This document shows, one piece after another, positions 8,438 through 18,747 of a DNA stretch of 31,902 nt. The position numbers were made by a program, and so were the translations under genes. Under the pieces are notes generated by a model. It was not told the origin of the DNA, did not search any database, and saw only the letters and a program-made list of their open reading frames with translations. How positions within the stretch are numbered: the first letter of the stretch is position 1; each line of letters opens with the position of its first letter. This DNA is from an uncultured Anaerolineae bacterium (lineage in GTDB: Bacteria; Chloroflexota; Anaerolineae; VGOG01), in assembly GCA_964400825.1 (NCBI GenBank), contig CAYNWI010000001.1:1166-33067 (forward strand), in the 5' to 3' direction.

Positions 8438-9466
8438 GTGGAAAGGATCATCGAGCTGCATGTGGCCGAGACCGGCCAAAGGATAGATAAATACATCGCT
8501 GACGAGATACCTGAGCTCTCCCGTTCCGTGGTGCAAAGGCTCATCAAGCAGGGGCGGGTGACGGTGGGCGGTGAGGCTAGCAAGTCCAGCTACCGGGTGG
8601 AGATGGGTGACGAAATCGTGGTGCGCATCCCACCGCTGGAGCCTATGGAGGTCAAGCCACAGGCTATTCCCCTGGACATTGTCTACGAGGACGAGGGCAT
8701 CATCGTGGTGAACAAACCGGCGGGAATGGTGGTGCACCCTGCCTACGGCCACTGCACCGGGACTCTGGTCAACGCCGTCCTGGCTCATTGCCCAGGCCTG
8801 GCGGGTGCGGAGGGCGACCCACGGCCAGGCATCGTCCACCGCTTGGACAAAGACACCTCCGGCCTGATCATCGTGGCCAAGAACGATGCGGCCCGCCGGC
8901 ACCTCCAGCGCCAGTTCAAGCGTCGAGAGGTGAAGAAGGTGTACCTGGCTTTGCTGGAGGGACGCCTGGAGCCAGCGCAGGGTGTAATCGAGGCTCCCAT
9001 CGGGCGGGACAAGAAGCGCCGCAAGCGCATGGCCGTGGTGGAGGGGGGACGGGAGGCCCGCACCGAGTACCAGGTCGTGGAGTACTTTGATGCTAAGGCA
9101 GGCAAGGCGTCCCGCTCCTACACTTTAGTAGAAGCCGAACCCAAGACAGGCCGCACCCATCAGGTGCGCGTCCACTTCGCCTCCATCGGCCATCCCCTGG
9201 CCGGGGATCCCGTTTACGGCTTCCGCAAGCAGCGCCTGAGCGGCTTGCATCGCCAATTCCTCCACGCTCAAACCCTCGGCTTTCGCCTGCCTGTCAGCGA
9301 CCAGTACATCAAGCTCACGGCGGAGTTGCCGGATGATCTCAGGGTGGTGTTGGAGGAGTTGAGGCGGGGGAATTCAGAGGAACTCAGGGGAACTGAGGGG
9401 AACTCGTGGGAACTTGCAAGATCATATCGAGAGCGGAATGGCTGCCCTTTCTCGCTCCCTCGTTGA
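8438..9466 (+). CDS. rluD: RluA-family pseudouridine synthase (RluD-like, S4 domain)
   Basis: RIDKYI S4 start, NKPAGMVVHP, HRLDKDTSG, TGRTHQVRVH, GDPVYG; last ~30 aa are repeat-derived. Confidence 0.9.
   Translation: MERIIELHVAETGQRIDKYIADEIPELSRSVVQRLIKQGRVTVGGEASKSSYRVEMGDEIVVRIPPLEPMEVKPQAIPLDIVYEDEGIIVVNKPAGMVVHPAYGHCTGTLVNAVLAHCPGLAGAEGDPRPGIVHRLDKDTSGLIIVAKNDAARRHLQRQFKRREVKKVYLALLEGRLEPAQGVIEAPIGRDKKRRKRMAVVEGGREARTEYQVVEYFDAKAGKASRSYTLVEAEPKTGRTHQVRVHFASIGHPLAGDPVYGFRKQRLSGLHRQFLHAQTLGFRLPVSDQYIKLTAELPDDLRVVLEELRRGNSEELRGTEGNSWELARSYRERNGCPFSLPR
9370..9419 (+). repeat. 10-mer tandem repeat (GAACTCAGGG type) x5
   Basis: GAATTCAGAG GAACTCAGGG GAACTGAGGG GAACTCGTGG GAACTTGCAA. Confidence 0.8.
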
Positions 9467-9521
9467 CTGGTTACTCGTTGACATGTCACTCGTTACCTTA
9501 TCACTCGTTGCCTCGTTACTC
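9459..9521 (+). repeat. 15-mer/7-mer tandem repeat with CTCGTT core
   Basis: CTCGTTGACTGGTTA CTCGTTGACATGTCA CTCGTTACCTTATCA CTCGTTGC CTCGTTA; contains the rluD stop. Confidence 0.75.
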
Positions 9522-9532
9522 GGAGCACCAAG

Positions 9533-10582
9533 ATGCACCAAGTATTCTTCAGGGAAGCCGTGCTTCAGGAAGAGCTCAACGGCAAGGCACGCTGCCTGAC
9601 CTGCGAGCGGCGGTGCGAGGTAGCGGAGGGCGGCCTGGGCTGGTGCCGCACGCGGCAAAACGAGGGCGGCACGCTTTATACTCTCATCTACGGCAACGTA
9701 TCGTCCCTCTCCGCCAACCCCATCGAGAAGAAGCCCCTCTATCATTTCTACCCCGGCAGCGTGGCCCTGACGGCCGGCAGTTGGAGCTGCAACTTCAACT
9801 GTCCCTGGTGCCAGAACTGGGACATCTCCAAATCGCCCCCTCGCCCTGGACGCTACGTGTCCCCGGAGGATTTCGTCGCTGAGACGGTGCGCCGTGGCTG
9901 TCAGGGCACCTCCATCAGCTTCAACGAGCCTACCCTCTCCCTGGAATGGTCCCTCGACGTGTTCAGGCTCGCCCGACAGCGGGGCCTCTACAACACCTAC
10001 GTGACCAACGGCTACATGACCCCTGAGGCGCTGGAGTTGCTGATCGAAGCGGGTCTGGATGCCATGAACGTGGACATCAAAGGGGATGCGGCAGCGGTGA
10101 AAAAGCATTGCGGCACCGATGTGGAGAAGGTCTGGCGCAACTGCCAGGAGGCCAAGAAAGCGGGGGTGCACATTGAGGTCACCACCTTGGTGATACCGAC
10201 CATCAACGACGACGAAGGGATTTTGCGGGGCATCGCCCGGCGCATCCGCCAGGAGCTGGGCGCCGACACCCCCTGGCACTGCAGCGGCTACTATCCCGCC
10301 TACAAATTCACTGCCCCGCCCACGCCGTTGCGGACCCTGGAGCGGGCCCACGACATCGGCAGGGGGGAGGGGCTGGACTTCGTCTACCTGGGCAACGTAC
10401 TGGGCCATCGGTACGAGAACACCTATTGTCCGGAGTGTGGGGAGTTGCTGATCCGGCGGCGGGGGTTGGATGTGGCCGAGTACAGGTTGCAGGACAACAG
10501 GTGCTCGCATTGCGGGCGGGCCGTCCCGGTGGTGACGGGCGTTGATGAGTTGAGCTTTGACTTGTCTGCTGCTTTGTGTTAA
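9533..10582 (+). CDS. amrS: AmmeMemoRadiSam system radical SAM enzyme
   Basis: N-terminal CLTCERRC...GWCRTR, ANPIEKKPLYHFYPG, CNFNCPWC, FNEP, TNGY, C-terminal CPEC/CSHC. Confidence 0.9.
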   Translation: MHQVFFREAVLQEELNGKARCLTCERRCEVAEGGLGWCRTRQNEGGTLYTLIYGNVSSLSANPIEKKPLYHFYPGSVALTAGSWSCNFNCPWCQNWDISKSPPRPGRYVSPEDFVAETVRRGCQGTSISFNEPTLSLEWSLDVFRLARQRGLYNTYVTNGYMTPEALELLIEAGLDAMNVDIKGDAAAVKKHCGTDVEKVWRNCQEAKKAGVHIEVTTLVIPTINDDEGILRGIARRIRQELGADTPWHCSGYYPAYKFTAPPTPLRTLERAHDIGRGEGLDFVYLGNVLGHRYENTYCPECGELLIRRRGLDVAEYRLQDNRCSHCGRAVPVVTGVDELSFDLSAALC

Positions 10583-10585
10583 AAT
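10557..10585 (+). promoter_or_regulatory. Sigma70-type promoter (copy 1 of a duplicated promoter)
   Basis: TTGACT, 17 nt, TAAAAT, with TG extension; overlaps the amrS stop. Confidence 0.8.
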
Positions 10586-10629
10586 GGACATCAAGGGAAG
10601 GCTAGCTGGAGTGGGTAGAAAGGAGAGGT

Positions 10630-10929
10630 ATGGAAAGAATTGCACTGAGAACTCAATTCTCCACCGGAGTTAATTGGGATGAAGTCCGCAAGGTTCTGAG
10701 CAGCGCGCTGCGTAACGAGACTGAGCTGGCCGACGCGCGACGCACTTACTTTGAACGCGCTTGCCATGCTTTTGAACAGCGGTACCAGATATCTTCTGAA
10801 GAGTTTATGCAGCAATTTGAATCCGGCGCGCTGGGTGACGATGCTGACTATTTTGATTGGTATGCGGCCAAACGTGGCTTCGACCTGTGGGAGCGACGCT
10901 TTCGCATCTTGTCAGGAGTCCAGGTTTGA
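10630..10929 (+). CDS. Small antitoxin-like hypothetical protein
   Basis: 99 aa, AAGGAGAGG RBS; FEQRYQISSEEFMQQFESGALGDDADYFDW resembles partners of DUF6516/TumE toxins; coupled to a toxin remnant. Confidence 0.7.
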   Translation: MERIALRTQFSTGVNWDEVRKVLSSALRNETELADARRTYFERACHAFEQRYQISSEEFMQQFESGALGDDADYFDWYAAKRGFDLWERRFRILSGVQV

Positions 10930-11221: not shown

Positions 11222-11782
11222 ATGTCAACTAAAGTTCCAATCTATCAGATCAAGGTCACGCTAGATGACAGCAAGCCGCCTATCTGGCGGCGCATCCTGG
11301 TGCCCAGCGACATCACCCTGGCAAAACTACACCGCATCCTCCAGGTCGTGATGGGATGGTCGGATTACCACCTTCACCAGTTCATCGTCGGAGGGGCCTA
11401 CATTGGTGAGCCTCACCCCGACTATGACGATTACCTGGACATGCACGACGAACGGGACGTGACGCTACGCCAGATCGTGTCCGGCGAGAGGTTCAAGTTC
11501 CGCTACGAGTACGACTTTGGGGATAGTTGGCTGCACCAGGTGCTGGTGGAGAAGGTGTTGCCGCCGCAGCCAGGCCAGCAGTACCCGCTGTGCATCAAGG
11601 GCAAGCGCGCCTGCCCACCGGAGGACGTGGGCGGGGTATGGGGCTACGGCGACTTCTTGGAGGCCATCCAGAACCCCGACCACCCTGAGCACGAGGAGTA
11701 CCTGGAGTGGGTAGGCGGCGAATTCGACCCCGAGGAGTTTGACCTGGACGGGGTCAACGAGGTGTTACGCACGTTGCGATGA
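11222..11782 (+). CDS. Plasmid pRiA4b ORF-3 family protein
   Basis: YQIKVTL...PPIWRRILVP, LHRILQVVMGWSDYHLHQF, YEYDFGDSW, GKRACPPEDVGG. Confidence 0.92.
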   Translation: MSTKVPIYQIKVTLDDSKPPIWRRILVPSDITLAKLHRILQVVMGWSDYHLHQFIVGGAYIGEPHPDYDDYLDMHDERDVTLRQIVSGERFKFRYEYDFGDSWLHQVLVEKVLPPQPGQQYPLCIKGKRACPPEDVGGVWGYGDFLEAIQNPDHPEHEEYLEWVGGEFDPEEFDLDGVNEVLRTLR

Positions 11783-13262: not shown

Positions 13263-13277
13263 CGAGGTATAGTGCCC

Positions 13278-13961
13278 ATGAGAATCCTGGTGATTGACGA
13301 GGACGAAGAATTCTCCAAAAGCCTCCGCTATTCTCTGCAGCGGGAAGGGCATCCCGTCTTCGTTGCCCTCGATAGCTCTTCCATCCCAACCCTGGTCTGG
13401 AAACACAAGCCTGACTTGATCATCCTCGACAAAGACCTGCTGGAGATTGACGGTCTTCGCCCTTTCGCTTCCTTGCAGGAGGACGTTGACATGCCGCTCA
13501 TACTTCTCGTTGCTCACGTTAAGGAGGAGGGGCGAAGAGAAGAGGAGTTGTCAGGGGAGCGTATCAGAGCCTTCGGGCTAAAGCATCTTCGTCGTGCGGA
13601 GGCGATCCTGCGACGGTTGCGTAGGCTCTTCGAGGAAGAGAGGACTATCCTGGAGATAGGCCAGTTGACTATTGACTTTGAGAAGAAACGAGTCACTTTC
13701 TACGATAAGCCCTTGTCTTTAACCCCCATCCAATTCCATCTACTGAGCTCTTTGGCCCTCGATGCCGGCCGAGTGATGGGCTATCGGGAACTCCTGGAGA
13801 ACGTGTGGGGTTACAAAGGGGAGGACAGCGAGGCGCGGGAACTGCTCAAGGTCCACATCAACCGCATGAGGCAGAAGATGAAAGCGATAGCCGGGGGGGG
13901 AGAGAGTTATATCCAATCGGTGCGGGGCTTTGGCTATAGGTTGTCTCCCCCAGACGAATAA
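13278..13961 (+). CDS. OmpR/PhoB-family response regulator, atypical receiver
   Basis: MRILVIDED...PDLIILD receiver start; wHTH with LTPIQFHLL, LLENVWG, VHINRMRQK, IQSVRGFGYRL. Confidence 0.88.
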   Translation: MRILVIDEDEEFSKSLRYSLQREGHPVFVALDSSSIPTLVWKHKPDLIILDKDLLEIDGLRPFASLQEDVDMPLILLVAHVKEEGRREEELSGERIRAFGLKHLRRAEAILRRLRRLFEEERTILEIGQLTIDFEKKRVTFYDKPLSLTPIQFHLLSSLALDAGRVMGYRELLENVWGYKGEDSEARELLKVHINRMRQKMKAIAGGGESYIQSVRGFGYRLSPPDE

Positions 13962-13981
13962 AGGCAACAAGTTTTTGACCC

Positions 13982-14030
13982 AACAGGGAATCTCTCGGGC
14001 AATGAGAGATCCCCTGTTTGCGTTCTTTTA
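13982..14030 (+). terminator. Probable terminator hairpin after the regulator
   Basis: AACAGGGAATCTCTC/GAGAGATCCCCTGTT (14/15 paired), then a T-rich tract. Confidence 0.6.
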
Positions 14031-14114
14031 CCGATCCTTAACCAAAGTGTAACCGTTTTCTCACCAAAGATTAACTGACTTGTTACTGACATCCTGGCGA
14101 ATTTAGGTTATAAT
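14027..14114 (+). promoter_or_regulatory. Promoter with six 11-bp-phased direct repeats (OmpR/PhoB-type operator array)
   Basis: TTTACC 14027, TTAACC 14038, GTAACC 14049, CTCACC 14060, TTAACT 14071, GTTACT 14082; CTGACA (14086-14091), 17 nt, TATAAT (14109-14114). Confidence 0.75.
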
Positions 14115-14149
14115 TGATGACAATCATGTTTGAGGAAGGAGGTATTAAA

Positions 14150-14335
14150 ATGGCCAAGTGCCCTGAATGCGGAAACCCAATCGAGGTGGGCAAAAGTGTG
14201 AAGCTGGGAGCGAACATCGAATGCCCAGAATGTGGCACGGTGCTGGAAGTCATCAGCCTAAGCCCCCCCGATCTGGACTACGCTCTTGGAGACGAGGACT
14301 GGGAAGATTGGGAGGAAGAAGAAGAAGAGGCATAA
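14150..14335 (+). CDS. LysW-like zinc-ribbon small protein with acidic tail
   Basis: CPECG...CPECG...LEVISLSPPDLD as in LysW; AAGGAGG RBS; ends DEDWEDWEEEEEEA rather than EDWGE. Confidence 0.85.
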   Translation: MAKCPECGNPIEVGKSVKLGANIECPECGTVLEVISLSPPDLDYALGDEDWEDWEEEEEEA

Positions 14336-14383
14336 CTTCCTCCGCCAGCAGGACATCCCATTCCAAAAGCACACGCGAAACAG

Positions 14384-14412
14384 AGCCCTAACCTGCTGGA
14401 CAGGTTAGGGCT
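14384..14412. repeat. 12-bp perfect inverted repeat
   Basis: AGCCCTAACCTG-CTGGA-CAGGTTAGGGCT. Confidence 0.8.
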
Positions 14413-14478
14413 TACCTCTCCCTACCCATCACAAGACCGTCAGGTCAGGCGAGAGGCGATTTAAGATCACCAGGACCG

Positions 14479-14627
14479 TTGTCAACGGCTTTTTGCCCGA
14501 AATACGTCGCCAGAATTGTCTTGGACGACCAGAACAAGAAGAAGTTGTAAAAATCACCAGCCTCCCCCTCGGTCTGGACTATACTGCCGAGAGCTGGAGT
14601 GAGGACTGGGAGAAAGAGGAGTACTGA
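14479..14627 (+). pseudogene. Decayed second LysW-like copy
   Basis: TTG 14479 frame: MSTAFCPKYVARIVLDD; other frame ending TGA 14625-14627: EEVVKITSLPLGLDYTAESWSEDWEKEEY, which parallels EVISLSPPDLDYALGDEDWEDWEEEEE. Confidence 0.6.
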
Positions 14628-14629
14628 AA

Positions 14630-15976
14630 ATGGATTCTGAAGAACCTCTTGGAGATAAGCCTCCCCCCCGTAGCCCAAATCGTCCTCCGATTTGGAAAAG
14701 CGTGGGCGAGGCGCAGTGGAATGATTGGCGGTGGCAGCTTACCCATCGCCTCAGCACAGCCGAAGCATTGGCCCAGGTTATCCACCTCACACCCGAAGAA
14801 GAGGCGGCGCTAGCTGCCCCAGGCCACTTTCGGGTTGATATCACCCCCTATTTTGCCAGCCTGATGGACCCCACCGACCCAACCTGCCCCATCCGTCGTC
14901 AGGTCGTCCCGACGGCCCATGAACTGGAACCCTTCGACCCAGCCACGGCCGACTCGTTGAACGAAGACCGCCACTCCCCCGTGCCAGGGCTGGTCCACCG
15001 CTATCCCGATCGGGTGCTGATGCTGGTCACCACCCAGTGCGCCAGCTACTGCCGCTTCTGTACCCGCAGCCGGGTGGTGGGCGACCCCACGGTCCAGTTC
15101 AGCCGCACCGATTACGATCAGCAGCTCGACTACATCGCCCGCACGCCGCAGGTGCGGGACGTGCTCCTCTCAGGGGGCGATCCTCTGACGCTGCCCCCCA
15201 GGGTACTGGAGGGTTTGCTCAGTAGCCTGCGGGCCATCCCACACGTGGAGGTCATTCGTATCGGTACCCGCGTGCCTGTCTTTCTGCCCATGCGGATTAA
15301 CGAAGAACTGACGGCCATGTTGCGGCAGTTCCACCCCCTGTGGATGAACATCCACTTCAATCACCCTAAGGAAATCACACCAGAGGTGCGCCAGGCCTGC
15401 GAGATGCTGGCCGACGCCGGCATCCCCTTGGGGTCGCAGACGGTGCTCCTGGCCGGGATCAACGACTGTCCCAACGTCATCAAGGCCCTGGTGCACGAGC
15501 TGGTCAAGATCCGCGTCCGACCCTACTATCTCTACCAGTGCGACCCGGTGCACGGCACCAGCCACCTCCGCACCCCGGTAGCCAAGGGGATCGAGATCAT
15601 CGAAGCCCTGCGGGGCCACACCAGCGGCTTCTGCATCCCCACCTACGTCATCGACGCGCCAGGTGGTGGGGGCAAAGTGCCTATCATGCCCCAGTACCTC
15701 ATCAGCCAATCGGACACACGGGTGGCGGTGCGCAACTTCGAGGGCTTCGTCAGCACCTACCCCCAGCCCACGGACTACCAGCCCCACAACCCGGCCCTTT
15801 GCGCCTATTGTCAAACGGCGCGGCCAGAGCCGGGTCAGGAAGGAGTGGAGGGGCTGCTGGCTGGTCAGGCCACGACCATCGCCCCTGAGGGCTTCGATAG
15901 GGTGCACCAGCGCCAGACCCGCATCGCCTGGCAGTCAGTCTGGCAAGTGCCGACAGTAGTCAAGGAAGTGGTCTGA
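14630..15976 (+). CDS. kamA: KamA-family radical SAM aminomutase (lysine 2,3-aminomutase-like)
   Basis: WNDWRWQL, LVHRYPDRVL, CASYCRFC, LLSGGDPL, HFNHPKE, YLYQCD, YVIDAPGGGGK (PLP lysine). Confidence 0.95.
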   Translation: MDSEEPLGDKPPPRSPNRPPIWKSVGEAQWNDWRWQLTHRLSTAEALAQVIHLTPEEEAALAAPGHFRVDITPYFASLMDPTDPTCPIRRQVVPTAHELEPFDPATADSLNEDRHSPVPGLVHRYPDRVLMLVTTQCASYCRFCTRSRVVGDPTVQFSRTDYDQQLDYIARTPQVRDVLLSGGDPLTLPPRVLEGLLSSLRAIPHVEVIRIGTRVPVFLPMRINEELTAMLRQFHPLWMNIHFNHPKEITPEVRQACEMLADAGIPLGSQTVLLAGINDCPNVIKALVHELVKIRVRPYYLYQCDPVHGTSHLRTPVAKGIEIIEALRGHTSGFCIPTYVIDAPGGGGKVPIMPQYLISQSDTRVAVRNFEGFVSTYPQPTDYQPHNPALCAYCQTARPEPGQEGVEGLLAGQATTIAPEGFDRVHQRQTRIAWQSVWQVPTVVKEVV

Positions 15977-17091
15977 TGCCCAGTTTCAGAGTTGCTCTGC
16001 TGTATAACCTGAAGCACAACGCCCCCCAGGAGCCCGGTGCTCCGCCCGACGCCCTGGCCGAGTATGACTCCATAGAGACTGTCCAGGCCCTTGAGGATGC
16101 TCTGCGGGCCGGTGGTCACCAGGTGATCCCTTTGGAAGGGGACAAGACGCTGTTGGACACCATTCGCCAAGCCGATCCCGACATCGCCTTCAACATCTGC
16201 GAGGGGCATCGGGGTGATGCCCGGGAATCTCAGGTGCCGGCCCTGTTGGAGATGCTGGACATCCCCTACACGGGTTCCAAAATCCTGGCTCAGGCTATCT
16301 CTCTGGACAAGGCCATAGCCAAGCGGGTGTGGCGGGACTGCGGCCTGCCCACTGCTCCTTTCCAGGTCTTCTACCACGAGCACCAGCCACTGGATGAGCA
16401 ACTGGCCTTTCCCCTGTTTGTCAAGCCGGCGCGTGAGGGCTCAGGGATGGGGATCAACGGCCACTCCGTCGTCCACGATGAGGCCGATCTGCGAGAGCAA
16501 GTGCGTTGGGTGCTCCAAACCTACCGCCAGCCGGCCCTGGTGGAAGCGCATCTACCAGGGCGGGAGTTCACTGTGGGCCTCATTGGCAACGTCATGGCAC
16601 CGGGGGAGCGGCCGTGGAAGGGCACCCTGACCGACCGAGAGTGCCGGCTGTACGACGAACGGGGCTTCCATCTTTTTCCGGTGTTGGAGATCGACTCCCA
16701 GGCGAGTGTCGGTCAGGGACTGTACAACGCAGAAGCCAAGTCCTACCACCCTGGTGAGGAAGGGGCGCCCCTCTACCTTTGCCCGGCGGACATTCCCTCG
16801 GACCTGGAGGCCGAACTGAAGCGTTTGGCCGTAGCCGCCTTTGAAGTCATTGGGGCCCTGGACGTGGCCCGGGTGGACTTCCGGCTGGGTGCTGGCGGGC
16901 AACCTTACCTCATAGAAATCAACACCCTGCCAGGCCTGAACCCGACGGTGAGCGACCTGTGCATCGTGGCCCGCGCCGAGGGGATGCATTACCCAGACCT
17001 GATCAACGAGATCCTGAACCTGGCGATAGATCGCTACGGATTGGGGTGGGATATGGGCTTCTCTTCCCGCTTCCGCCGGCCATTCCTATAG
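15976..17091 (+). CDS. Ddl-like ATP-grasp ligase 1
   Basis: FNICEG, PYTGS, LDKAIAK, FVKPAREGSGMGI, GREFTVG, ARVDFR, EINTLPGL; TGATG coupling to kamA. Confidence 0.9.
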   Translation: MPSFRVALLYNLKHNAPQEPGAPPDALAEYDSIETVQALEDALRAGGHQVIPLEGDKTLLDTIRQADPDIAFNICEGHRGDARESQVPALLEMLDIPYTGSKILAQAISLDKAIAKRVWRDCGLPTAPFQVFYHEHQPLDEQLAFPLFVKPAREGSGMGINGHSVVHDEADLREQVRWVLQTYRQPALVEAHLPGREFTVGLIGNVMAPGERPWKGTLTDRECRLYDERGFHLFPVLEIDSQASVGQGLYNAEAKSYHPGEEGAPLYLCPADIPSDLEAELKRLAVAAFEVIGALDVARVDFRLGAGGQPYLIEINTLPGLNPTVSDLCIVARAEGMHYPDLINEILNLAIDRYGLGWDMGFSSRFRRPFL

Positions 17092-17129
17092 ATAAATGGC
17101 CGAGGACGGAGAAGCCGAAGGAGGTGACG

Positions 17130-18314
17130 ATGCATTCAGACGAAAAGCCTCCTGGGGTGGTTGTGTTGTACAACCACAGCCAAGGGCTGGTGAAGGGCGA
17201 GCCTCGCGACCTGCTGGCGGAACAGGGGGTCATCGCCTGCGCCCATGCCATAGCGGAAGCGCTCCACATGGCCGGTCGGCGGGTGGAGTTGGTGCCCATC
17301 TACAGCGATGTAGAGTTGGCGCTGGCATCGTATCCTCCTCTGGACTGGGTGGTTTTCAACCTGGGGGAAGGGCTGGCGGGGCGACTCTTCGAGGAAGTAC
17401 GCATTGCCTGGGCTTTGGAGGCCATGGGCTACGCCTTTACCGGCTCGGGAGGGGATGCCATCCTCCGCTCGACCCATAAGGAACAGGCAAAGACGCTGCT
17501 GGCCGAGGCGGGCGTGCCAACTCCACCCGGGCGGATCTTTTACGACCCGGGGGAAGTGGAGGAGCACAGTGTCGCTACGCTCCCCTTCCCTCTCATAGTC
17601 AAGCCGGTAGCTGAGGACGCCAGTCTCGGAGTCAGCACAGACGCTGTGGTACACACCCCAGCAGCCTTGCAAGCGCGAGTGGCCTACGTGGTAGAGCGTT
17701 ACCGGCAGGGAGCGCTGGCGGAGCAGTTCATTGGCGGACGGGAGTTCAACATCTCCTTATGGGGCCATCTGCCACAAGTTCTGCCCCTGGCGGAGATAGA
17801 CTTCAGCGCCTTTGACGATCCTTTCCAGCGCATCGTTTCCTTTGCTGCGAAGTGGGAAGAGGACTCTTTTGCCTACAACCATACCCCTGTGGTCTGCCCG
17901 GCTAACGTGGCGTCGGTTCTCCGTGACCGCATTATTGCCACTGCCCAGCGGGCCTGGAGAGCCATCGGCTGCCGGGGCTACGCACGGGTCGACATGCGTG
18001 TGGCCGCCGATGACACGCCCTGCGTCGTGGAGGTTAACTGCAATCCCGACATCTCGCCGGATGCCGGCTTCTTCCGCGCCGCTCGTGCCGCCGGGTACAA
18101 CTACGTGGGGATGGTCACTCATATTCTGAACCTTGCCTTAAGACGGCGCAACACCTGTGATTACGAAAGCGAAAGAGCAAGATGGCTCACAAGTTCTGCA
18201 TCTAACCGCCGCCGCTGGCGTTTTCAAGCCAGACGAAGTGGCCTGCGTCCAGGAGTTATGGGACGCTTACCTGCGACAGGGCGAAGCCAGTGGCTACGTT
18301 TTTTTGGTTTATAA
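17130..18314 (+). CDS. Ddl-like ATP-grasp ligase 2 (homology ends near 18150)
   Basis: FNLGEG, FTGSG, VKPVAEDASLGV, GREFNIS, GYARVDMR, EVNCNPD; AAGGAGGTGA RBS before ATG 17130. Confidence 0.88.
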   Translation: MHSDEKPPGVVVLYNHSQGLVKGEPRDLLAEQGVIACAHAIAEALHMAGRRVELVPIYSDVELALASYPPLDWVVFNLGEGLAGRLFEEVRIAWALEAMGYAFTGSGGDAILRSTHKEQAKTLLAEAGVPTPPGRIFYDPGEVEEHSVATLPFPLIVKPVAEDASLGVSTDAVVHTPAALQARVAYVVERYRQGALAEQFIGGREFNISLWGHLPQVLPLAEIDFSAFDDPFQRIVSFAAKWEEDSFAYNHTPVVCPANVASVLRDRIIATAQRAWRAIGCRGYARVDMRVAADDTPCVVEVNCNPDISPDAGFFRAARAAGYNYVGMVTHILNLALRRRNTCDYESERARWLTSSASNRRRWRFQARRSGLRPGVMGRLPATGRSQWLRFFGL

Positions 18315-18747
18315 GAACGGGGACCGCCTCCTGGGCTACGCCTGCTTCGGGCCTCACACGCTGACCGAGGGGACCTTCGACCTGTACTGGATTGCCGTAG
18401 ACCCGGAGGCGCAGGGGCAGGGCATCGGCCACGCCCTGCTGGCGCGGGTGGAAGAGGAGGTGCAGGCCCGAGGAGGCCGGCTGCTGCTGGTAGAGACATC
18501 AGGCACCGCGGCGTATGCCCCAGCTTGTCGCTTGTATGAATCCTGTGGCTACCATTACGAAGCGGCAGTCCACGATTTTTATGCTCCTGGCGATGACCTG
18601 ATCCTCTACACCAAACCCCTCACGCCCACACCGATGATGAAAACGCCATGTTATCCCTTGATGACGCCCAACGGCACGACCCTGGCCACCTTGCGAGCGA
18701 CTCCCGTCGAGTGTACTACGTTGACCACTCGGTCTACATCCTTGTAG
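18157..18747 (+). CDS. GNAT family N-acetyltransferase (homology ends near 18620)
   Basis: GYACFGP, DLYWIAVDPEAQGQGIGHALL, VETSG...Y, DFYAPGDD. Confidence 0.88.
   Translation: MITKAKEQDGSQVLHLTAAAGVFKPDEVACVQELWDAYLRQGEASGYVFLVYKNGDRLLGYACFGPHTLTEGTFDLYWIAVDPEAQGQGIGHALLARVEEEVQARGGRLLLVETSGTAAYAPACRLYESCGYHYEAAVHDFYAPGDDLILYTKPLTPTPMMKTPCYPLMTPNGTTLATLRATPVECTTLTTRSTSL

Follow-up and report, generated by a model that had tools for sequence, protein, structure and literature searches.

What does a bacterium make from a homologue of the amino-group carrier protein LysW, a lysine 2,3-aminomutase (KamA), two ATP-grasp ligases (here AG1 and AG2) and an N-acetyltransferase of the GNAT family, when all are encoded together? 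The question is raised by a module on the + strand of a 31,902-nucleotide stretch of DNA from an uncultured Anaerolineae bacterium (assembly GCA_964400825.1, contig CAYNWI010000001.1, positions 1,166 to 33,067), hereafter the window, in which positions are counted. The original prediction, made from the letters alone, had described a same-strand run of a LysW-like gene, a decayed second copy, kamA, two Ddl-fold ligase genes and a GNAT gene, and all of these are present at or near where it placed them. Its span of 14027-18747 stands as far as these elements go, but the cluster really starts at 13272, with a regulator gene, and the whole module covers 13272-18747, from that gene through the GNAT gene. 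The arrangement LysW-like / KamA / AG1-AG2 / GNAT is a real, conserved Chloroflexota cluster, and a literature search found no description of a cluster combining these elements. Regarding its product, the reading proposed here, tentatively and at somewhat less than an even chance, is that the tail of the LysW-like protein receives beta-lysine by ligation and that this is then extended and N-acetylated, the protein being either a carrier or the substrate itself.

The small protein (14150-14335, + strand, 61 residues from MAKCPECG) carries the zinc ribbon of LysW (PF21344 Zn_ribbon_LysW, E = 7e-13) and ends in the tail DEDWEDWEEEEEEA; its gene is preceded by the ribosome-binding site GGAAGGAGG. 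The four-Cys zinc-ribbon domain is homologous to that of LysW. A profile built from 30 members of the LysW-like family aligns end to end with Thermus thermophilus LysW 3wwl (E = 5e-14) and matches Thermococcus 5k2m (E = 3e-13), and the acidic-acidic-Trp motif of the family aligns with EDW in the EDWGE that ends LysW; the small protein is thus a LysW homologue with a tail running beyond LysW's end. Public annotation names it 'LysW', a label that does not hold against the curated models, which it matches at 41 bits (TIGR01206, cutoff 53.2) and 36 bits (NF041070, cutoff 75). The small protein does not end in EDWGE with its substrate-carrying Glu; across the family the last residue is A, V, F, E, D, W, Y, I or L, and only the four Cys, L32, P39, D43 and the acidic-aromatic motif are conserved throughout. 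Database representatives number 1595 at E <= 1e-3, canonical LysW included, and 124 at E <= 1e-10. Tandem two- or three-domain LysW-like proteins are common among them (P0253, P0254, P0264 and others), some with basic tails, and one protein of 620 residues has seven zinc-ribbon-like stretches.

A second LysW-like gene survives in the window as a remnant of 44 codons (14493-14627, + strand), which has lost the four Cys and kept the tail LDYTAESWSEDWEKEEY, and whose 3' end provides the ribosome-binding site GAGGAG of KamA. The remnant is orthologous to an intact second copy in the related locus L001 (934-1116, tail LDYAIESWEWEDEEEE), and this copy is wholly eroded in L002 and L006.

The amine would be supplied by KamA (14630-15976, + strand), a radical SAM and pyridoxal phosphate enzyme of the KamA/AblA type, which scores 539.2 bits against TIGR03820 (cutoff 525.4) and matches PF04055 and PF12544. 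It contains CASYCRFC (the CxxxCxxC cluster motif), YLYQCD and YVIDAPGGGGK, remains under the cutoffs of the glutamate- and arginine-2,3-aminomutase models, and reaches 241 of the 369 bits needed for EpmB. The lysine-type specificity originally proposed, there from the aspartates of the latter two motifs, is upheld, and the production of beta-lysine, for which the family assignment is the basis, is a well-supported prediction and the best-supported step of the mechanism.

At the other end of the run, the RimI-like GNAT (18157-18747, + strand; PF00583, E = 3e-15) remains under the cutoff of its best model (rimI, 48.7 bits against 86). Its start is placed at 18157 because the N-terminus is conserved. 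It is not an AblB, given its 21.4 bits against a cutoff of 205.1 for TIGR03827. That the last step of the pathway modifies a free amine is well supported. The final ~45 residues of the enzyme are unconserved in L002 and L006, and at 18651-18747 the 3' end of its gene overlaps the 3' end of the convergent rtcB by 97 nucleotides.

AG1 (15976-17091, + strand; PF07478 Dala_Dala_lig_C, E = 1e-32) and the more diverged AG2 (17130-18314, + strand; PF07478, E = 8e-26) are Ddl-fold ATP-grasp ligases, with structure and model matches solely to Ddl. Partial coupling of the genes had been claimed and is seen at both ends of this pair: the KamA stop codon and the AG1 start codon share one base, and the 3' end of AG2 overlaps the GNAT start; 38 nucleotides, containing the ribosome-binding site GAAGGAGG, separate AG1 from AG2. 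Both enzymes keep the DdlB residues K144, E180, K215, R255, D257, E270 and N272, and these catalytic and Mg residues are invariant in 82 AG1-family sequences, save for N272, which is a gap in one. The Ddl cutoff NF002378 (243 bits) is reached neither by AG1 (189) and AG2 (126) nor by five further AG1-family members (173-185). Ser150 and Tyr216 are reported to be conserved in ligases making only D-Ala-D-Ala (PMC7691350). This signature is found in neither enzyme: in E. coli DdlB numbering, the AG1 family has S/T at position 150 and S/T/G at position 216, and AG2 has Ala150, Trp216, Ala281 and Gly282. The substitutions V18D, H63E and L282D are invariant in the 82 AG1-family members, across all clades. 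The last of these would fit a diamino acid nucleophile, position 282 lying, according to the DdlB literature, in the second-substrate pocket. It is well supported that AG1 and AG2 are active amide-forming ligases and not D-Ala-D-Ala ligases. Public annotation leaves nearly all of their relatives without a name or calls them 'D-alanine--D-alanine ligase', and the AG2 homologue family, of more than 2000 proteins, bears only the name 'D-Ala-D-Ala ligase'; this label fails the curated tests, so the present assignment is also an annotation correction.

AG2 passes the GNAT start by 158 nucleotides in another frame (18157-18314), which gives it a 54-residue Arg-rich tail with an isoelectric point (pI) of 12. 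Such a tail is found in most AG2 homologues (380-394 residues), and the AG2 of L001 ends at the GNAT start. The idea of a docking arm for the acidic tail of the small protein was rejected: the extension overprints, out of frame, a GNAT N-terminus that is conserved, and L001 does without it, which makes read-through more likely. It is probably a tolerated overprinting, although it may be a real basic C-terminal arm. A search for LysW-AG1 fusions among the long AG1 homologues also came back empty: in P0109 the C-terminus of KamA seems to be read through into AG1, and P0113, P0094 and P0082 have only N-terminal extensions or insertions.

The conservation of the cluster was examined from both sides. 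When an AG1 alignment was run against GTDB genomes, one for each species, at least 586 relatives were found, and 80 loci were retrieved, annotated by tblastn and a small-protein hidden Markov model, and placed on a neighbour-joining tree. All 80 are from Chloroflexota, mostly Anaerolineae, and include Caldilinea aerophila. The original prediction had staked itself on LysW-like genes accompanying the cluster elsewhere, and this is borne out: none of the 22 LysW-like genes in these loci is more than 2 kb away from the AG1/KamA block, and the 724 kb of flanking sequence beyond that distance contain no LysW-like gene (binomial p = 3e-10). Complete clusters are also found in L001, L002, L006, L007, L010, L012/13, L016, L017, L113, L116, L164, L170 and L173, and the contigs with close homologues of the small protein (L001, L002 and the relatives of L002) share the cluster.

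In clade A, which holds the window, KamA is directly 5' of AG1 in nearly every locus with that side sequenced, with L014 and L033 as the exceptions without KamA, and many loci have the full set of LysW-like protein, KamA, AG1, AG2 and GNAT. One sub-group has the order histidine kinase, regulator, LysW-like (divergent strand), receiver, KamA, AG1 and an HDAC-family protein (PF00850, E = 1.5e-72). A second deep AG1 clade shows the order regulator, LysW-like, AG1, KamA, and the LysW-like/AG1 link is present in two deep AG1 clades. Two further clades are stand-alone; in one, AG1 adjoins the atp operon and no partner is encoded within 10 kb of it. These relatives (L040-L085, for example L058 10001-11038; ~50% identity) lie divergently beside the atp operon and mreB in many Anaerolineales; the suggestion that they are the true Ddl of Anaerolineales was discarded, as they also remain under the Ddl cutoffs and bear the same acidic substitutions. 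Any partners that they have must be encoded in another part of the genome.

Loci vary in their tailoring genes, and KamA+AG1 loci are often without GNAT. Two further contexts came to light through AG2 homologues. L170 has the order regulator, LysW-like, KamA, AG1, SET-AG2 fusion, GNAT and H+-PPase; in the fusion (9001-10704, protein P0210, 567 residues; also in L171) a SET (lysine methyltransferase) domain is found at the AG2 N-terminus. L173 and L174 carry LysW-like, KamA, AG1, AG2, a GNAT remnant and an HDAC-like gene; an MscS channel is encoded close by. More generally, an HDAC-family (PF00850) amidohydrolase is encoded 3' of AG1/AG2 in L015, L020, L022, L023, L080, L173 and L174, where it replaces the GNAT or adjoins a GNAT remnant, and some loci have a GAF-HisKA_3 kinase and an extra receiver. 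Genes of osmotic or ionic homeostasis are also seen beside the module in loci that are otherwise unrelated, namely a TreT-like trehalose synthase, an amino-acid permease, MscS, CorA and H+-PPase (L002 199-3416, L151 1385-5302, L173 8106-8936, L170 11172-13358), and their recurrence is a weak hint at the inducing stress.

Seen from the LysW-like side, the small-protein alignment picked out another 80 loci in metagenomes. In 24 of them the protein is a canonical LysW ending in EDWGE or EDWGQ, and AG1 and KamA are missing from all 24. The two of them that were scanned as controls, L124 and L131, carry a RimK/LysX gene (LysX_preATP_grasp) directly 3' of LysW, followed in L124 by the LysY semialdehyde dehydrogenase. 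Among close relatives of the window protein, the enzyme block is found in about five distinct loci. Others are free of the enzymes: they have the regulator's ortholog, LysW-like copies in tandem (one to five), in many cases an acidic orphan protein of 103 residues, and then convergent rtcB, and they occupy the chromosomal site of the window's module, minus KamA through GNAT. The orphan ends in EEWD or EEWE (L086 9191-9502, L087 5070-5381, L089 1760-2071) and has no Pfam, NCBIfam or PDB match. A further group (L141, L151-153) has two MscS genes, CorA, a transporter, a regulator, two LysW-like genes, an AG1 relative (~49% identical) and a protein of 344 residues, without KamA; the last protein (L141 4002-5036), past AG1, has no Pfam, NCBIfam or PDB match either. 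Given the enzyme-free arrays and this KamA-less group, the tightest recurring unit is regulator plus LysW-like gene. AG1 is found with this unit in three or more separate lineages, KamA is common, and AG2 and the amine-tailoring enzymes are accessory. The dedicated response regulator, the recurrent core of regulator, LysW-like gene and AG1, and the HDAC-like and SET variants all go beyond the original prediction.

The regulator (13272-13961, + strand) is of the OmpR/PhoB family, with a receiver and a winged helix (Pfam Response_reg, E = 3e-10; Trans_reg_C, E = 9e-18). It is under all NCBIfam equivalog cutoffs, and no histidine kinase gene adjoins it in the window. Its orthologs, 73-100% identical, are directly 5' of LysW-like genes in L086-L114, and remoter OmpR-type regulators (27-34% identity) adjoin the module in L010, L012, L013, L036 and L038. 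A terminator-like inverted repeat follows the regulator gene (13982-14018, + strand; 15-nucleotide arms, 93% complementary, then the T-rich TTTGCGTTCTTTT). Next come six direct repeats with an 11-bp period (14027-14092, + strand: TTTACC, TTAACC, GTAACC, CTCACC, TTAACT, GTTACT), the sixth of which overlaps the -35 hexamer of a sigma-70-type promoter, CTGACA-17 nt-TATAAT (14086-14114, + strand; 11/12 matches). Both the phased operator array and the single strong promoter of the original prediction stood up to examination: the period-11 score of 0.53 (about 0.23 for other periods) is equalled by none of 5000 shuffles, and the promoter is the sole promoter-like site detected within 13800-14800. 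The phased motif occurs once in the 31.9-kb window, with a chance expectation of 0.15.

Array and promoter are kept nearly base for base in L001 and 5' of one L006 copy. L007, L010, L017 and L039 have 11-bp arrays of their own, and the cores in unrelated loci (e.g., TGCACA, TGATAC, TTCACC) end at TATAAT. A winged-helix regulator gene adjoining tandem repeats of ~11 bp that abut or replace the -35 is the architecture of an OmpR/PhoB-type activated promoter, and it is found here. The six repeats are, from their architecture, presumed binding sites of the regulator, and control of the operon by the regulator is well supported. An Rfam scan of 13800-14800 returned no riboswitch, including no lysine riboswitch, and only a chance match to a long non-coding RNA (E = 1).

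Between the LysW-like gene and the enzyme genes lies a conserved stem-loop, AGCCCUAACCUG / CAGGUUAGGGCU (14384-14412, + strand), with a perfect 12-bp stem, no U-run and a fold z-score of -3.8. A stem-loop of the form GAGCCCUAACCUG...CAGGUUAGGGCUC recurs ~40 nucleotides past LysW-like stop codons in more than 10 loci, enzyme-free arrays included. Its stem changes are one-sided and G-U-compatible on the + strand, and a covariation test found zero double compensatory changes; the element is, therefore, conserved but unproven by covariation. The 110 nucleotides 3' of 157 LysW-like genes fold more strongly than control segments (p = 3e-8), and some of the hairpins there are true terminators with U-runs. 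The window's own stem-loop is probably an RNA stabiliser or an attenuator. As it has no U-run, and as the promoter search of 13800-14800 found no second promoter ahead of KamA, the enzymes probably rely on read-through.

These elements can be arranged into the following scheme. The regulator would bind the six repeats, which stand in for a normal -35, and activate the promoter at 14086-14114, as the architecture of the sites suggests. The LysW-like protein would be produced in excess, the stem-loop stabilising its part of the transcript or attenuating read-through into the enzyme genes. KamA would convert L-lysine to beta-lysine, and AG1, with ATP, would join one of the amino groups of beta-lysine to a carboxylate of the acidic, EDW-containing tail, paralleling the logic of LysX on LysW with a Ddl-type enzyme instead. 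AG2 would then add a second residue, and the GNAT would acetylate the remaining free amine; in genomes elsewhere, the tailoring may fall to an HDAC-like amidohydrolase or a SET methyltransferase domain. The outcome would be a small protein that is beta-lysylated and N-capped, whether it is the end product or a carrier-bound intermediate. A bolder version can be conceived, in which the Ddl-type ligase grafts KamA-made beta-lysine on carboxylates of a lysine-free acidic tail and the new amines are extended (AG2), acetylated (GNAT), methylated (SET) or deacetylated (HDAC-like), as a writer/eraser code switched by the regulator; it is rather unlikely.

Several observations speak for the LysW-like protein as the putative acceptor. 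It resembles LysW over its whole length, EDW motif included, and the only role of LysW known to us is that of substrate or carrier of an ATP-grasp ligase. Its gene repeatedly adjoins AG1, independently of lineage, and LysW-like genes that are multicopy, decaying and trailed by hairpins are as expected of a stoichiometric substrate. The accessory enzymes (RimI-like GNAT, HDAC-family, SET) are of protein-amine-modifying types, and the ATP, Mg and catalytic residues retained by both ligases also favour ligation by them.

A considerable body of evidence, nevertheless, weighs against this acceptor, and much of it suits the main alternative, in which the product is a free small molecule. Addition of beta-lysine to the Glu-rich tail, offered as an option in the original prediction, is not established: neither the acidic tail nor the C-terminal residue is conserved across the family, and the partners are often apart. 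The ligases are Ddl-type and not RimK/LysX-type, no release hydrolase is encoded in the window, and co-localisation could reflect shared regulation only. Under the alternative, AG1 and AG2 would act as amino-acid ligases, as do the L-amino-acid ligases and the ATP-grasp portion of Ngg, and assemble a di- or tripeptide with beta-lysine, or else a short oligo-beta-lysine, which the GNAT would N-acetylate to a stress solute or metabolite; the LysW-like proteins would share the regulon of the enzymes, or bind the cationic product, without being covalent substrates. AG1 has the full Ddl catalytic set, retains the Ddl residues that bind two free amino acids (an E15-like Glu, R255, S281), and adds acidic residues (D31 and E76 on the acyl-donor side), which leaves acidic residues in both pockets, three of them extra and suited to cationic diamino acids. 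The enzyme is also acidic overall (pI ~5), a poor fit to a polyanionic tail, so there is no simple electrostatic case for its binding one, and its pockets and charge fit cationic free substrates such as (beta-)lysine better. About 10 KamA+AG1 loci, or about one third, have no LysW-like gene within 10 kb (such enzymes without a nearby LysW-like gene are found in L011, L018, L019, L021, L022, L027, L028 and L030), and the same is true of ~50 stand-alone AG1 loci; conversely, ~12 distinct loci of close relatives have the regulator and a LysW-like array with no enzymes in cis. The HDAC family includes acetylpolyamine amidohydrolases, and the neighbouring MscS, CorA, TreT, amino-acid permease and H+-PPase genes hint at osmotic or ionic stress. 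What a free peptide leaves unexplained is the position of LysW-like genes immediately 5' of AG1/KamA in several deep AG1 clades, and the pairing of LysW-like genes with AG1 where KamA is lacking. SET domains and RimI-like GNATs, moreover, usually target protein amines, and no exporter or uptake gene is consistently linked. The free peptide is, overall, possible but doubtful.

The more conventional explanations fare far worse, because for each of them a defining feature was tested and failed. A plain AblA/AblB pathway to N-epsilon-acetyl-beta-lysine, accompanied by cell-wall Ddl genes and an unrelated LysW-like neighbour, would account for a KamA above the AblA equivalog cutoff and for a GNAT in the operon. 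It is very improbable: the GNAT reaches 21 bits where AblB needs 205, many KamA+AG1 loci have no GNAT at all, the reading frames of KamA and AG1 overlap and the two genes are neighbours in nearly all clade A loci, and both ligases lie under every Ddl cutoff, without Tyr216. Slightly more improbable still is that the locus serves canonical LysW-dependent lysine or arginine biosynthesis, or makes a microviridin-type graspetide with ATP-grasp-made internal cycles. The LysW fold and the EDW motif agree with the former, and two ATP-grasp genes with a GNAT and a small precursor resemble mdnA-D; yet the window has no LysX, LysZ, LysY, LysJ or LysK gene, canonical LysW loci having LysX/LysY, and the tail is not Glu-ended. 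It also lacks the Lys, Ser and Thr nucleophiles of a graspetide, consisting of D, E, W and G with a hydrophobic end residue, and the ligases are of the Ddl type, which suits neither pathway.

The module sits among housekeeping genes, with ileS, lspA, an rluD-like gene and purB on its 5' side, and rtcB, archease, ribF, truB, infB, nusA and proS on its 3' side; it is, therefore, chromosomal, without sign of a mobile element. Two other genes of the window are apparently unrelated to it, namely one for a PRiA4_ORF3-like protein (11222-11782, E = 5e-75) just 5' of purB, and one for an RVT_3 (RNase H-like) domain protein (2009-2659) near the window start.

To our knowledge, all partner ligases of LysW, the founding amino-group carrier protein, have so far been of the RimK type, from the synthesis of lysine and arginine and from a few Streptomyces pathways. 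What is new here is that a LysW-type small protein is found with ligases of another class, a supplier of beta-amino acids, another kind of tail and regulation of its own. If ligation to the small protein is true, the carrier idea would extend to another ligase class and to beta-amino-acid chemistry; if the free peptide is, a new beta-lysine-derived metabolite would be at hand. The system is compact, with five genes, one regulator and one promoter.

Comparison with known systems shows what is shared and what is not. The closest is the LysW/LysX system of Thermus, Sulfolobus and Thermococcus, with the amino-group carrier proteins of Streptomyces: a zinc-ribbon LysW homologue with EDW is encoded beside an ATP-grasp ligase, and the acidic tail is the likely handle. 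The tail of the window's family, however, extends 8-40 or more acidic residues further, and its last residue is not the attachment Glu; the ligase encoded with it is Ddl-type, a lysine 2,3-aminomutase is the partner enzyme, and LysZ, LysY, LysJ and LysK are missing. The LysW-like genes are, besides, multicopy, readily decaying and under a dedicated response regulator. The AblA/AblB pathway of methanogens, Chlorobi and some Bacillus likewise has an AblA-type aminomutase followed by a GNAT on the same strand, but the GNAT here is not AblB-like, two ATP-grasp genes separate it from KamA, and in related loci it is dispensable or replaced by HDAC-like or SET functions.

With DdlB, VanA and the L-amino-acid ligases BacD, TabS and RizA, the ligases share the fold, the ATP/Mg residues and presumably the acyl-phosphate chemistry, including equivalents of K215, R255, D257, E270, N272 and S281. 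They differ from Ddl in Y216, which is S/T/G in AG1 and W in AG2, in the three acidic substitutions invariant in the AG1 family, in a 25-40-residue AG1 insertion ahead of the omega loop, and in gene positions outside a cell-wall context. In gene content, the module recalls microviridin mdnA-E (small precursors, two ATP-grasp ligases and a GNAT) and the synthesis of N-acetylglutaminylglutamine amide by Ngg, in which an acetyltransferase and an ATP-grasp enzyme yield an N-acetylated peptide osmolyte; here, in contrast, the tails are without internal nucleophiles, the ATP-grasp subfamily is another one, and a radical-SAM aminomutase supplies a non-proteinogenic amine. Finally, EF-P beta-lysylation by EpmB and EpmA offers the likeness of a KamA-family enzyme that supplies beta-lysine for attachment to a protein. 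KamA is here of the long AblA type, however, the ligase is an ATP-grasp enzyme and not a LysRS paralogue, and the candidate acceptor is the LysW-like protein.

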